Translations under genes and position numbers: made by a program
Notes under the pieces: model-generated
The model's input: the letters and a program-made list of their open reading frames with translations, nothing else
The model's database searches: none
Told to the model about the DNA's origin: nothing
Shown: in pieces, positions 32,730 through 61,600 of the stretch
Layout of the letters: the number at the start of each line of letters is the position of its first letter
Position numbering within the stretch: the stretch's first letter is position 1
Assembly: GCA_000004695.1 (NCBI GenBank)
Contig: CM000151.3
Span: forward strand, 7,168,001-7,232,000
Reading direction: 5' to 3'
DNA length: 64,000 nt
DNA from: Dictyostelium discoideum
Lineage: Eukaryota

Positions 32730-33485
32730 AAATTTTTTTTTTTTTTATTTAATATGTTAAATCTAAAATGTTAATCACAAAATTTTTTTTTTTTATTTTT
32801 TTTTTTTTTAAATCTCTTATTTTCAATTTTTAAAGAAGTACTATTGCATCAGTAATTGCATTTTATTTCTTTATTTCAATTTCATTAGTATTTTTAAATA
32901 AAATATTATTATCAGATTTTAAATTTGAATATCCATTATTCATAACATGGTATCAACAAATCATTTCATTTGTATCAATTTATATAATGACATCAATAAG
33001 TAAGAGTGTACCAGCATTATCATTTTTACCAGAATTTGAATTTAAATCAGCAACTGCATCAAAGGTGTTACCAGTAACTGCAGTTTTAACAGGTATGGTC
33101 ATTTTTAATAATCTTTGTTTAGAATATGTTGAAGTTTCTTTTTATCAAGTAGGTTTACTCTTTTTTTTATTTTTATTTTTTTATTTTATTTTTTTACTAA
33201 CACAATTATTAAATTTTAATAGGTAGCAAGATCTTTAACAATTTGTTTTTCACTCATTTTAACATATATTGTACTCAAAAGTAAGACATCATATAGAGCA
33301 ACAATGGCATGTTTAGTAGTATTCCTTGGATTTGTTTTAGGTAGTGCAGGTGAGGTTAATTTTTCATGGTTAGGTATTATCTTTGGTTTATTATCAAGTT
33401 TTTTCGTTGCTTTATATTCAATTGCAGTTAAAAGAGTGTTACCAGCTGTTGATGGTAATGAATGGTAAATATTCATACTTTATCT

Positions 33486-52480: not shown

Positions 52481-52646
52481 TTAATTATTATCATTTGATG
52501 ATAGTCTTTCAGATATAAAGTACATAACATCATTTGAAAACCAATATGATTTATGAGCATTTAAAACTGAACTATAATCAGAGAATGATGAAAATACACC
52601 AGTTTGTTTTAATTTGTAATCAAATCTATATCCACCAAAATATTTG

Positions 52647-52696
<50 letters not shown>

Positions 52697-54424
52697 GTTA
52701 TTATTATTATTGTTGTTATTATTATTATTATTATTAATATTATTTGATGGTGTTAAAGGTAATGGTTTATTTGGAGTATTTAATGATGATTTTTTAGAAT
52801 CTAATTGTTGACTATCAATATAAAGATTGTAGGATGATCTATCACTTTTTTCACTTCTTTCACTTGATTCATCATCAAATTCACTATCTGATGATGGAAA
52901 AGAAGAACCATTAAAACTTTGATTCCTTTTCATTGATGTTGAAGATGCACCATCAAATGATAACATTTCAGTTTCCTCAACTAATACGTTTACATTTGAT
53001 GATGGTGATGGTATTGGTTTTTGTGTTGTTAATTGTAATGCTGAATTATTTGGTATTATTTCATTATTATTATTATTATAATTATAATTATAATTATTAT
53101 ATGTTGATGTTGTATTATTTGTATTTGTAGTATTAGTAGTTATTGGTGTTGGTGTTGAATTTTTATTAATTACAGAATTAAGTTTACTTGTAAGTTTTGA
53201 AAGCATACTGGTAGTTGTACTACTTGTTGTTGTTGTTGTTGTATTATTAGTATTATTATTATAGTTATTATTAGTATTATTATTAGTACTAGTATTATTA
53301 TTATTTGAAAATGAAGAATTTGAAGATACATTTGCTGTTGTTGTTGTTGTTGTTGTTGCTGTAGTTAATTCAATTGAATTTTGAATTGATGGTGTTGATA
53401 CACTATTGTTATTATTATTATTATTATTATTATTTTGAAGTTTATTTACAAGTTTTGATTTTTTAAAATGAGGAGCTAAAGATTCACCAGCATCTTGAAA
53501 ACCTTCATCAATTAAAGGTTCTAATAATGCAGCAACAGGATCAGATGGATCATAAATATTATAAAGATTTGTACAACTTGGTATATCAATTGATTGATGA
53601 CCTCTAACTGTACAAAATAAACCAATTGGTGAACCAATACAATAAAGATTGAAAACATCAAATTCTAATTTTGGAAAATTAATTGATAATAAACTATTCT
53701 TTAATTCCTCTTCAACATCAATTTCATCAATATCTGATTCAGTTTCTTCATCACTACTATAATCATCTTTTAGCTTATGTTGTTGTTGTTGTTGTTGTTG
53801 TTGTTTTAATTTTTGTTTTTCTAATTTATTTAATTGTTTTTGTTTTTTATGATTATTTTGTTGTTGTTGTTGTAATTTTTGTTGTAATTTTTGTTCATCT
53901 TTAAATTTTCTCCAATAGTAGATATTACCTTTATCAATATGATTGGTGGAATCATATTGATAGTTGGAGGTGGTTGAATCAGTTGAAGAGTCAATCTTTG
54001 ATATTGAGGTTAATTGATGACAGAGTATGTCGTAACAAATCATTGAACCTAGTGAATGGGCTAGAATTGATACTTTACCTTTGAATGTCGGATTTGCAGC
54101 TAAGAAATCCCTATAGATTTGATTCAATTTATTACCAACTTCACTATAGATATGTTGACTAAATGTTGGACTTGTAAATAATAATATATCTAATAATGTA
54201 TGATTTATCAATTCACGTACAACTGGAATAGTGTTTGGTGTAACTTTCTTTATAAATGCATCTGTCTTTTTATGAACTCCTGAATGCCATTCAAGACCTA
54301 TGAATTTACAATTCTTATTTCTTTCTGTTATTTTTGTAACATTTTGATAAGTTTGATTAATTTTTATAATTTTTTCATTCCATTTTTCTTCATGCTTTTT
54401 TTTTTTATTAAAAAAAGATATTAT

Positions 54425-55404: not shown

Positions 55405-55775
55405 TTATAGTTACAATAATTTAAATAACTTGAATAGAATTCCAAAAATCGGATTCCTTACCTACTCCATATGAATTTGATAAGTTTTTGAAAAAAAAAA
55501 AATTCAAAAAGAGGTTCAAAAACTAATTTTTTGACAGTTTATTAACTAATTATTGTAATTTAATTTTTAATATAATTTGAATTCTTAGACATTTGATTTT
55601 TATTTTTATTTTTATTTTTATTTTTTTTTTTTTTAAAAAAATATTTAAATCCAGTTTTTTTTTTTTTTTTAAATATATCTTATCAAATTATAATATTACA
55701 ATTACAATTACAAAAAATAAAAAAAAATAAAAATAAAAAAATAATTTATAATAATAATTAAAAAATCAAATCAAA

Positions 55776-56492
55776 ATGAGAATAAACTTTAAATTAATTT
55801 TAATAATATTAACAAGTTTTTATGGAATTATTAATTGTCAAAGTACTTGTCCATATTCTAAAACCGTAATTAATGGAGCATCAGCAACTTTTTATTCAGC
55901 AATGGATAATGGAAATTGTGGATTTGGGAAATTAACAGGACCAACTGGACCTGGAAATTATATGATTGCAGCTCTCGGTACTAAACTATATCAAAATGGA
56001 GCTCAATGTGGCCAATGTTTTAAAATTAGTAATTCTAAAAATGCTTCTGTCACTGTAATGGCCACAGATTCATGTAACGATGCTGGATATTGTCAAAGGG
56101 ATAATCATTTTGATTTATCGCCTACCGCATTCTCAATATTAGGAGCACAATCTCAAGGTGTGTTGGATGGATTATCCTATGTTAAAGTACCATGTAGAGT
56201 TAGTGGTAATGTTAAAGTTATGTTAAAAGATGGAAGTAATGCTTACTGGACATCTTTCTTGGTTTTCAATAATGCTATTGATGTTAAACAAGTTTCAATA
56301 AAGTTAAGTGGAAGCTCCACTTATGTACCACTCACTCAAACAACTTATAACTATTGGCCATCAAGTATTACTGCTGGTTCTTTCCAAGTTAGAATTGAAT
56401 CAATTGGTGGTGAATTCATTTATGTAACTATACCAAGTGTTGTTAGTAGTAAAATTTATGATACTGGTAGCCAATTCTCTTCATCGTGTTAA
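55776..56492 (+). CDS. Expansin-like secreted protein (DPBB domain plus C-terminal CBM63-like domain), 238 aa, single exon.
   Basis: Signal peptide MRINFKLILIILTSFYGIINC. Expansin hallmarks are present: GA(S)ATFY...GNCGFG, GAQCGQCF, the HFDLS motif, and a C-terminal beta-sandwich with W/Y aromatics. Confidence 0.8.
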   Translation: MRINFKLILIILTSFYGIINCQSTCPYSKTVINGASATFYSAMDNGNCGFGKLTGPTGPGNYMIAALGTKLYQNGAQCGQCFKISNSKNASVTVMATDSCNDAGYCQRDNHFDLSPTAFSILGAQSQGVLDGLSYVKVPCRVSGNVKVMLKDGSNAYWTSFLVFNNAIDVKQVSIKLSGSSTYVPLTQTTYNYWPSSITAGSFQVRIESIGGEFIYVTIPSVVSSKIYDTGSQFSSSC

Positions 56493-57139
56493 ATAAAAAA
56501 AATGAAAAAAAAAAAAAAAAAAAAAAAAATAATAATAATAATAAATTTTAATTTAATAAATTAATATTTAATATTATTGAATTAAATAAAAAAAAAAAAA
56601 ATACAAAATTATAATAATAAATTTTATTAAATTAAAAATAGTAAAAAGTTGTTTATTTTGTGAGGTGTAAAGTTTTTAATTTTATTTTATTTTTTGGTTA
56701 AAACTGGAAATTTTATTATTATTAAAAATTAAAAAAAAAAATAATAAAAAAATAATAAAAGAAAATCAATTAGTTTATCAATTTATAAGCGACTATTAAT
56801 TTAGTTTTAGCATTATAAAAATCATTACAACTAATTTTATTTGAACTATTTATTTGTTATTAAAAAAAATAAAAACTACTAAAAATATACCATTACTTAT
56901 ATTTTTAATTTTGTTTTAAATTTTTATGCAACAAATAAAATAATTCAAATTTTAAAAATTCTTTTTTTTTTTTTTTTTTTTTTTTCTTTTTTTCCTTCTA
57001 ATATGTCTATTCCTTTTTTTAATTTGTTTTTTTTTTTTTTTTTTTAATTCTATTTAATTTACTATATGTACACTAAAAACTATTTGAAAAAAAAAAAAAA
57101 AAAAGAAAACCAATTTAACCTAAAATTTGTTAATTCTTT

Positions 57140-57967
57140 TTAATTCTTTTTTGAAGGACGTAATTGTGTCCAAACCTTTTTAATTTTTGGAATTAAATCG
57201 GCAGCCCAAATTGTACCAACTAAAAGACAAGCATAACCTGTATAAGTGAAAACTATAGCAGAGAACCAACCCATAACAGACAAGCAAGTTATATTTTCAT
57301 TCTCGCAACCAGGTCTATAGGCAGCAGGTGAAATGAAAGAGTGGATGGTCCAAATACTATTATCAACTAGAATATGTCTTAGAATATCAAAGGTTGCCAA
57401 TGGAACAGCGATAGCTGTAAGATAAAAAGGTCCAAATTTAATCCAATGACCTCTATCCGATGGTCTCTTTTTACATTTATGGAAATGATATTGAGCAAGG
57501 TTTGAAAGTATACTAAGTGTAATGGCGAATGTTAAAGAATGAGCTAGTTCAACGGATCCTGCACTAACTGCAACACCAGAAAGGCTTGCAATGAGCACAG
57601 GCCAACATCAAGAACCTATAAAAATCAATATAAATATATATATATATATATATTAGTTTTCATAGCACTATTTTATTGATTTGATTATTATTATTAAAAT
57701 CAAAAACTTACCAACTAAAGCTGGAATACTAATTAAAAGTGTAAGAATTGAAATGAATAATGGTTTTTTAGTTTGTTCTTCTTGTGGGGAGTTTGAGGTT
57801 GAGGAGATACCAATGTTTGCTTTTTCTTCATCGTTTGTCTTTGAAATTAATGGTGTAGACTCATCACTAGCATTATTGATAGATGATGATGATGAAGAAG
57901 GTCTAGCTCAAACGCCACCTTCACAATCTTCACCTAAATCCACTTTTGGTAAATTAAATAATGACAT
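57140..57967 (-). CDS. Multi-pass membrane protein of unknown function. Minus-strand exons 57712..57967 and 57140..57567 (donor G|gtaagt, acceptor gttgcAG, phase 1). There is an in-frame TGA at 57908-57910.
   Basis: The phase-consistent junction gives ...KKPLFISILTLLISIPALV-V-SAGSVELAHSLTFAITLSILSNLAQYHFHKCKK... However, the only ATG (57967) is separated from the rest of the frame by TGA 19 codons downstream (MSLFNLPKVDLGEDCEGGV*ARPSSSSSS...). There is no in-frame ATG after the TGA. Confidence 0.45.
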
Positions 57968-58682
57968 TTCTTTTGCTTTTTTTTTTTTCTTTAACTTGTT
58001 TTTTAAAATTATTACTATTAATTATAAAATAAAGAATTAAAATGAAAAAAAAAAAATAAAGAAAATAAAGTGTTATTATTTAAAGTGTGTGTGGTTATTA
58101 ATGTAAAAATGTAATGATATAAAAAATAAAAAAATAAAAAATAAAAAAAAAAGTGAAAGAACGGTTTTTAAAAAAAAAAAAATAAAAAAAAATGAAAAAA
58201 AAACAATTATTAATATAGAAAGAAATTTCATTTTATTTTTCTTTTCCACAAAAGCGCCGACGAATAAAAAAAAAATTTTTAGATATTTATTTTAAATTTT
58301 AAAATTAGGAATTAATTAATTTTTTTACCATTAAATAAAACATTCACAAAAAAAAAAAAAAAAAAAATTTTATTTTCATTTTTTTTATTTTTTTTTTTTT
58401 TTATTGGTTAAATTTATTTATTTTTAATATGAATTTAGTATATAAAAATAGATAGAGCACTCAAGAATACACAAAATGATATAAAGTATAAAAAGGATGT
58501 AATCATTCCGTTTTTTTGATTTTTTTTTTTTTTTTTTTTTATCTAAAATTTTATTTTCAGAATTTATTTAATTTTAAATTCATTTTTTTATCTTAATAAA
58601 TACATTTTTTTTTTTTATTTTTATTTTTTTATTTTTTTATTTTTTTCTTTTTTCTTTTTTCAGGTTTTGTGACTTATTATTT

Positions 58683-61600
58683 TTATTTTGGCATTGTTGG
58701 TAAAGAGAGGGGTATGGGTGGTGTCGTTCTTCCTTGAATTGTAATTCCTGTAGATTTTGACAACGATGCTTGGTGGAATTTTGGTTTATTAAAAAGATTA
58801 CAAGTACCATTGGATAAAATTGGTTGAAAAGTAGTTGGAGAGTTATTAGTATTATTGGATGGAGGTGGTAAATCATTATTTGTTGTTACATTTCCAATGG
58901 TCGAAGATGATCGAGGTGGCGGAGCATGCTTTACAATTAAAGGAGGTGGTGGTAATTGAATTTCACTAGCAGTTTTTTTAAATGCACTATTTATATTACT
59001 AAATGGAGAAGAACGATTTGGTAAAGTACAAGTTTGATTTATTGAATTTTGATTATTGTTATTATTATTGTCATTATTATTATCATTATTATTATTATTA
59101 TTATTATTGTTATTATTATTTATTGATGATGGTTTTGAAGCAATTGGTTGTGATATTATTGATGCAGTTGTAATTGGTGATTTTGCTCGTGGTGCTGGAG
59201 TTGGTTTAGTAACTGGAGATTTTGCTCTTATCACTGTTGATGGTGGTGTTGTTTGAGGTGGTGGAGTTGGTGATACTGAATGTGGTGTTGAAGAGGATGG
59301 TGGTGGTGGTGGTAATCTATTTGTATCACCTTGTTGATATAAATAAGTTTTAGGTGGTAATGGTGGTGGAATTGAATTGTTATTATTATTGTTTGAAGAA
59401 AAATAACCATCATCATCATCATTATCAGGTGGTGGAGGTAAATTTAAACAAGATGATGGTAATGGTGGTGGAGTGAATTTTGAATTATTTGAAATTATAG
59501 GTGGAGGAATTGGTGATGTGCAAGTTGATTTATATTCAGTTTTTGTAGAAATTGTAGTTGTTGTAGTAGTTGTAGTTGTTGTGATAGTTGTAATTGATGG
59601 TGGTGGTGGTAATGGTAAACTATTGAAATCAATAGGTGGTGGTAGATTTGAAAATTCTATTGAAGGTGGTGGAGGTGGTGGAAATCTTGGTGAATTTGAT
59701 GATGAATTAATTGTTGTTGTTGTTGTGGCGGTTGTTGATGGAATTGGTATTGGTGGTGGGAATTGTAAAGGTGGTGGAGGTGGTAATAAATTTGTAAAAC
59801 TTCTAGAACCACCACCATTTTTAATTGGAACATAGTCACAACTTGATGAAAGAGGTGTATTAAAACCAGATGATGGAGCAGATAAAGGATGTGAAGAAGC
59901 AGAAGTACTTAAATATTCAGTATCAGCAGTTATTGTATTATATGGACTAGCATTTCTAGGTGGTGGAGGTGGTTTTGTCATAGAATTTGGTTTTAAAACT
60001 TGTGATGCTGGAGGTGTAGTCAATTGAGGAGAAGATGATGAATCATCACTACCATATGAAATTGATGATATTGTTTGTGGCATTCTTCTTGCATTATGTT
60101 TTGTATCTTGTTGTTGTAATTGTTGTTGTTGTTGCTGTTGTTGTTGCTGTTGTTGTTGTAATTGTTGTTGTAATTGTTGTTGAATTGATGGATCATTTTG
60201 GAAATTATAAAATGATGGTACAGAACTTGCTCTTGAAAAATTTGAAGAAGATGGTACAGTGCTTTGAAAAGTTGGAGATAATGAATCAATTACAGAATGA
60301 GTAAGAGTACTATTGGGTGAAGGGTTGGCAGAGTATGGACCACTAAGAGGTTTACCAGTTGTTGAATTATTTGGAGAAGTGAAAATATCTTTAACATTTA
60401 ATGGTGGTGGAGGTGGTTTTCTAGTTTCTCTTAAACTACCAGTTGGAGTAATTGAATTCAGTGATAATGAAGATGGTGAACCTGATGAAGTTGAGGACGA
60501 AGAAATTAAACCACATCTACCAATTGTACCATTACCACCACCACTATTTGAATGACTTTGTCTAGTATTAAAACTTGGAGATTCTAAACTTGGTGAATTA
60601 CTACCACCACTACTACCACCATTACCACAACCACTATTACTTAATAAACCAGTTAAATTTGCCGAAGATCTTGGAGATGGTGTCATTGAAATATCAATTG
60701 ATAAAGTTGGAGTACTTGATAAAGAAGATAAAGAACTTGTTGAATTTAAGAAAGTACCAGAATTCTTTTTTAAGAACCAACTATATTTAGCTTGTTTATT
60801 TTGATCAATTTTACCACCAGCCAATGATTGAATTGCAGCTAACCATTCTTTTTTCTCTGCTTCACTTGAAAAGTATAAACCAATAATCTTTTCTTTCTTT
60901 TCATTTAATACTAAAATTTCAAATCCTTCTTTATAACCAGGTAATGAATCAATTGAATCACGAATTAAAATATTTTCTAAATAAACTATTAATTTTACAG
61001 TTGAATTTGATTTTTTATTTTTAGCTAAAATTAATACATCTATATATTTTTTTATAAAAAAAAAAAAAAAAAAAAATTAATATTTTTTAAAAATTTAAAA
61101 AATAAATAAATTAATAAAATAAAATATTTTACCATTTAATAAAATACATCTTAATAATTCTTTATCTAATTTTTTTGAAACTAAACCTTCTTTTATAAAT
61201 TTTCTATTTTGATTTGATAATTTTAAATCTGAATCTAAATTTTGTAAAGAATATTCAATTTCTTTAATTTTTTTATCATTTTCTATTTTCTCGTCGGCAA
61301 GTCTTTTTTGATGATTAATTTCCTCTAAGATTGAATTAATTTTTAAGAAACAATAATTTATAAAACCATAGTCCATATGATCGATTGGAGTATTCTCTAA
61401 AAGTGATTTTAATAGTAATGGATATTTTGTAATTCTTTGAATTGGTTTAATAATTAACATTGGAAATGATAATCCTCTTGTTAAATGACTCTTTGCTGCA
61501 CCTTCAATACAATTTGAAAATACTTTTGATGAAATTTTTAATTTTTCAAATGATTCTATACATGTATTTTGATATGAACAAAATTCTTTATATAAATTTA

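Follow-up and report, generated by a model that had tools for sequence, protein, structure and literature searches.

The locus and its splice structure

The window, by which we mean the whole 64-kb stretch of Dictyostelium discoideum DNA analyzed here, carries on its minus strand a two-exon gene, msp, with two in-frame TGA codons and a SECIS hairpin in its 3′ flank (Table 1). The 243-residue product, MSP, is predicted to be a multi-pass membrane protein. Reading of the minus strand gave MSLFNLPKVDLGEDCEGGV as its N-terminus, followed by the TGA at 57910-57908 and then by ARPSSSSSS, and in the alignment the N-terminal arrangement MSLFNLPKVDLGEDCEGGV-U-ARP was common to the window and its orthologues. 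GC content is 33-37% in the exons and 12-13% in the flanks.

Table 1 Features of the msp locus in the window and the loci with which it was compared
Feature	Position	Strand	Description
MSP exon 1	57712..57967	(-)	256 nt; start ATG 57967-57965; ends in phase 1
Sec codon 1	57908..57910	(-)	TGA, codon 20; motif C-E-G-G-V-U
MSP intron	57616..57711	(-)	96 nt; GTAAGT...TATAG; 12.5% GC
MSP exon 2	57140..57615	(-)	first codons (G)S-U-CWPVLIASLSGVA; stop TAA 57142-57140
Sec codon 2	57608..57610	(-)	TGA, codon 88; motif G-S-U-C-W-P; turn between predicted membrane helices 1 and 2
3′ stretch between stop codon and SECIS	56842..57139	(-)	12.4% GC
SECIS element, type II	56762..56841	(-)	fold, covariance model, covariation
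SECIS UGUA	56829-56826	(-)	
SECIS AUGA core	56825-56822	(-)	then U-U mismatch and helix II
SECIS AAAA bulge	56808-56805	(-)	then four-pair mini-stem
SECIS UGAU	56780-56777	(-)	
L001			JGI contig, intronless
L002			D. purpureum
L003			D. cf. discoideum
L004			D. citrinum
L005			Polysphondylium violaceum
L006			H. album (Heterostelium album)
L007			Acytostelium subglobosum
Distant homologue genes	L008 23-721; L009 22-720; L010 95-784		proteins including P0011 and P0016

The reading of the frame bore out the ATG, the in-frame TGA lying 19 codons past it, the GT donor at 57711 and the TAA stop named in the initial annotation. Its acceptor at 57568 proved wrong. The intron stays at 12.5% GC up to a tatAG at 57617-57616, where it ends, and the next 48 nt (57615-57568), which the proposed acceptor would splice out as well, have a GC content of 50% and are conserved in the orthologues. 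Both candidate acceptors preserve the frame and are 16 codons apart; the AG at 57568 was ruled out, as its use would remove 16 conserved codons including the second TGA (57610-57608). Because of this wrong acceptor, the second Sec codon (GS-U-CWP) had been missed. The 227-codon frame reported at that time does follow from its splice model, but the real coding sequence, obtained with the natural acceptor, comprises 243 codons with two in-frame TGAs. The accompanying remark that there is no later in-frame ATG was slightly off too, since Met200 (in CLSVMGW) exists, though too far downstream to matter.

In the frame that follows the natural acceptor, the context of the second TGA on the minus strand is ALVGS-TGA-CWPVLIASLSGVA, and the stretch GS-TGA-CWPVLIASLSGVA is kept in every aligned orthologue. 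The D. purpureum locus has no intron at this site and the JGI contig L001 has none at all, so that in both of them the second TGA lies inside a single unbroken conserved frame. An intron is found at the same place as in the window in D. cf. discoideum and D. citrinum, and nearby in P. violaceum, where it splits the Sec codon as T|GA.

Between msp and a convergent open reading frame of 238 residues at 55776-56492 (+) there is a gap, in which the SECIS element sits. The counterparts of this frame in L003 and L004 carry the Pfam domain DPBB_1 (expansin-like), and the gene order is thus shared with D. cf. discoideum and D. citrinum. Two further long reading frames flank the locus and look like the low-complexity proteins typical of Dictyostelium. 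The one at 58683-60824 (-) has 713 residues, abounds in Pro, Ser, Asn and Gln and contains poly-Q and poly-N tracts; the one at 52481-54211 (-) has 576 residues and extended stretches of Asn and Thr. At the H. album locus, a tRNA gene (Rfam tRNA, 59 bits) occupies positions 4524-4594 of L006, about 220 nt beyond the msp SECIS.

Conservation of the two TGA codons

A protein search with MSP returned matches that were all dictyostelid, with E values from 1e-28 to 1e-123, one of them (H. album) being named "membrane selenoprotein". DNA was fetched for seven dictyostelid loci (L001-L007), the window being the eighth sequence; its DNA is 88-93% identical to that of the D. cf. discoideum locus. The two TGA codons of msp, 68 codons apart, are invariant at both sites in 8/8 sequences. 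At the first site, all eight conform to GA[TC] TG[TC] GA[AG] GGN GGN GTN TGA, that is, DCEGGV-TGA, with 2, 2 and 10 variable alignment columns at codon positions 1, 2 and 3, respectively, around it. Seven of the eight read GGN [TCT/AGT] TGA TGT TGG CCN at the second site, where variation is limited to synonymous positions and includes the switch between the serine codons TCT and AGT. The eighth is P. violaceum, in which the TGA is preserved even though an intron divides the codon. This pattern of TGA conservation lies far beyond chance. Since the variation around an invariant TGA falls mainly at third positions, the sequence on both sides of the TGA is translated, which excludes a sequencing error, a pseudogene, a bypassing exon or an alternative start. 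The initial annotation had listed a sequencing error, read-through and a bypassing exon or start among its options, and all of these are contradicted by this flanking conservation in independent assemblies. The same annotation had proposed to look in orthologues for Cys or Sec at site 1, and these were found to keep TGA, not Cys.

The published gene models of the orthologues disagree precisely where the TGAs sit: the codons are spliced around, or the model starts after them, or a W is printed in their place, as at both positions of P0003, a protein from a JGI/Logan contig. In the NCBI models P0001 and P0002, GEDCEGGV-TGA is treated as intronic, and P0004, P0005, P0006 and P0008 lack one or both Sec sites. 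Such models, like the algal MSPs that have no N-terminal Sec (PMC2375036), would agree with a codon-20 TGA that is bypassed by another start, an unrecognized intron or an upstream exon, so that only the second part of the protein would be made. We regard this as highly improbable: the 19 codons ahead of the TGA and the ARP behind it are conserved as protein in eight sequences, with DNA changes mostly at third positions, and the intronless contigs L001, L008, L009 and L010 have the TGA within one unbroken frame. Moreover, no in-frame ATG occurs from the TGA to the first membrane helix, and the published sequence has U at this site (PMC2375036).

Taken by themselves, the models from six dictyostelid genomes (L002-L007; P0001, P0002, P0004, P0005, P0006 and P0008) dodge the TGAs by invented introns or late starts, and even the one named "membrane selenoprotein" is among those without one or both Sec sites.

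The SECIS element in the 3′ flank

The initial annotation had suggested a search for a SECIS element at 56900-57140. Such an element is indeed present in the 3′ flank, but further out, at 56841-56762, starting 298 nt past the TAA stop of msp. Inspection by eye, followed by a simple scan, found one AUGA...AAA...UGAU hairpin per genomic locus, with the AUGA core 211-314 nt past the stop. In the window, helix I is formed by pairing of AAUUAGUU with AACUAAUU, and the minimum-free-energy fold reproduces the type II architecture. The folding energy was no better than that of shuffled sequences (z = -0.43) and is uninformative, as expected, because the RNA has a GC content of only 16%.

A covariance model built from six distinct orthologue sequences gave a single strong hit at each locus (71-80 bits, E 1e-15 to 1e-17), although its matches to those six sequences are partly circular. 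The informative part of the support is the pair statistics. In the SECIS alignment, 86.7% of cells are paired, compared with 31-48% when the partners are slid by one to three columns; compensatory double changes occur in 11 of the 22 pairs; and none of 500 shuffles attained the observed pairing score. RNAalifold independently recovered helices I and II and the mini-stem. The element is thus conserved with compensatory changes in six species.

As for further SECIS elements in the 64-kb window, the covariance model gave only one other match that reached about 20 bits, at 33043-33118 (-) (20.4 bits, E 0.06; ATGA...AAAA...TGAT). The "ATGA" of this match belongs to aaaATGacc, which opens the reading frame MTIPVKTAVTGNTF..., and the match is probably due to chance. 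An Rfam cmscan of window positions 55500-58500 at E ≤ 10 reported no SECIS family, only chance matches to CC0734, mir-598 and U7, and the Rfam SECIS models likewise reported none on the dictyostelid orthologue loci at the same threshold. Because the purpose-built model and the covariation support the element, we attribute this silence to the Rfam models, which would be poorly suited to protist SECIS elements of such high AT content. The Rfam model SECIS_1 did match the 3′ UTR of the distant homologue L010 (824-883; 31.3 bits, E 0.015), below its gathering score of 35. No SECIS was found in the 195-nt 3′ flank of L001, a contig that is probably too short to include it, since the element starts about 195-298 nt past the stop in the other loci. 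We infer that the msp transcript runs on for at least 380 nt beyond the stop codon and so includes the SECIS.

In eukaryotes, a SECIS element binds SBP2, which delivers eEFSec and Sec-tRNA to a ribosome that has reached a UGA, and several UGAs can be served by one SECIS in the 3′ UTR. It is almost certain that msp is such a gene, with two exons and both UGAs (codons 20 and 88) decoded as Sec through one type II 3′ SECIS. The hairpin about 300 nt past the TAA would recruit the Sec insertion machinery (SECIS-binding protein, eEFSec and Sec-tRNA), and the ribosome would then insert Sec at both UGAs rather than terminate. None of the genes for this machinery (Sec-tRNA, SPS2, eEFSec, SBP2) was found within the window; for D. 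discoideum a Sec-tRNA has been cited and SPS2 is listed among its selenoproteins (PMC2375036). Selenocysteine recoding, one of the options offered by the initial annotation, is borne out by the SECIS in the 3′ flank, by TGA rather than Cys in the orthologues, and by the published MSP (PMC2375036). The present analysis provides the structure of the gene, the conservation of its two TGAs, the covarying SECIS and the homology to MSP, whereas the 75Se labeling and the assignment of two Sec residues are taken from that publication.

Automatic gene callers gave W for TGA in the metagenomic homologues P0003, P0011 and P0016, which would be in line with a selenium-free event, that is, read-through or reassignment with Trp or Cys at the UGA; a related alternative is that the gene is a decaying pseudogene in which the TGA truly stops translation. 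We give these only a very slim chance. The DNA reads TGA, the printed W being an artefact of the caller's genetic code, and every genomic orthologue has a conserved, covarying SECIS downstream. The alternation of Sec and Cys at site 2 is typical of selenoproteins, and a pseudogene is excluded by the purifying selection seen on either side of the TGA. Furthermore, 75Se labeling in D. discoideum yielded a band of the size of MSP, at the level of the band and not of the individual site (PMC2375036). A sequencing or assembly error turning TGT or TGG into TGA, for which nothing speaks besides its a priori possibility, is already refuted for all practical purposes by the presence of both TGAs in ten sequences other than the window, which were assembled independently and stem from different species and projects.

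The published MSP and its wider family

Lobanov et al. (2007, Genome Biol 8:R198) described five selenoproteins in D. discoideum, namely SPS2, SelK, Sep15, a deiodinase homologue and MSP, and reported two Sec residues in the last (PMC2375036). All D. discoideum SECIS elements were described there as type II, the core being preceded by UGUA and followed by a U-U mismatch, with AAA left unpaired (PMC2375036). The gene in the window is this already published MSP, and its recoding is genuine but has been known since 2007. Their supplementary alignment gives ...GEDCEGGVUARP... and ...ISIPALVGSUCWPVLIASLSGVAVS...PSKKN for D. discoideum MSP (PMC2375036), and the window protein is identical around both Sec sites and from GSUCWP through PSKKN. 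The two agree in the sequence at both sites, in having two Sec residues, and in the UGUA-AUGA, U-U mismatch, AAA and type II form of the SECIS; nothing substantive differs. The machine-read published protein lacks about 11 Ser-rich residues (SSSSSSINNAS) and one Leu near the N-terminus: it reads ARPEDESTP where the window (57900-57860), L003 and L004 have ARPSSSSSSINNASDESTP, and MSFNLP (PMC2375036, supplementary file 2) where the window has MSLFNLP. Since the window shares these residues with L003 and L004, the gap probably reflects an outdated gene model or an error of text extraction.

The layout of the protein was derived from hydropathy and from an AlphaFold2 model of the orthologue P0003, made with a 54-sequence alignment, and the two were in agreement. 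The model has a pLDDT of 77 (>90 over residues 110-240) and predicts helices at residues 71-89, 93-101, 107-137, 145-173, 202-226 and 229-239. The N-terminal 60-70 residues, including the first Sec, are predicted to be disordered, and the second Sec falls in the turn between the first two helices. We infer that MSP is a membrane redox protein, in which the U-C pair in that turn would form a selenenylsulfide and the disordered N-terminal C-x4-U tail may constitute a second, mobile redox center.

Messenger RNAs with several Sec codons and 3′ UTR SECIS elements are known, for instance those of selenoprotein P and of SelL with its UxxU pair. The case of msp resembles them in that more than one UGA per open reading frame is recoded from the 3′ UTR, but the proteins are unrelated, MSP has just two Sec residues, and each genomic msp locus has a single SECIS, whereas that of selenoprotein P has two. 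The algal MSPs of Ostreococcus, Chlamydomonas and Volvox have a homologous membrane domain with a GS/GA-U-CWP Sec site and share the conserved RHVLQD, YGP and C...CLS motifs. In contrast to the Dictyostelium protein, they show the second Sec alone in the published alignment and lack the N-terminal C-x4-U tail (PMC2375036).

Searching 1.84 billion representative proteins yielded 283 relatives at E ≤ 1e-3. Hardly any variation is seen in this family at a His of helix 3, at YGP and RHxLxD, or at two Cys of the loop that precedes the last membrane helix. The only Pfam match of MSP was to GtrA_DPMS_TM, at 15 bits against a cut-off of 26. Both TGAs are also present in three distant homologues that are 40-50% identical (L008, L009 and L010) and lie on short JGI contigs lacking introns; the motifs there are C-x2-U or C-x4-U and GA-U-CWP. 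Among 22 full-length representatives, a small sample, the residue ahead of CWP is encoded by TGA (printed as W) in 10 and is Cys in another 10, the TGA behind the printed W having been checked on DNA for P0003, P0011 and P0016. The N-terminal C-x(2-4)-TGA is present in 8/10 TGA-type and 0/10 Cys-type members, and some of the latter end C-terminally in EDC[NG]CEV. Cys in place of Sec is thus seen in the family at site 2 alone; no Cys counterpart of site 1 was found among the family homologues compared. The algal MSPs of the 2007 alignment are exceptions to the co-occurrence of the two Sec sites. Judged from these sequences, the two-Sec arrangement is not confined to Dictyostelia.

The gene first flagged as interrupted is therefore a case of genuine recoding of the genetic code and not an error, and, as it was described in 2007, it brings no new biology. 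The practical gain consists of exact coordinates for both Sec codons and the SECIS, together with a corrected splice model. Public orthologue models from six or more dictyostelid genomes delete or truncate the Sec sites, an error of annotation that deserves correction. The apparent co-occurrence of both Sec sites in distant relatives offers a small lead for the study of the role of MSP. It is conceivable, though rather doubtful, that the N-terminal C-x(2-4)-U tail is a widespread second redox center working with the U-C site of the membrane domain and not a Dictyostelium oddity. If this were true, it would suggest that the tail is flexible and exchanges electrons with a selenenylsulfide on the membrane surface, in roughly the way that thioredoxin reductase uses its C-terminal GCUG tail.
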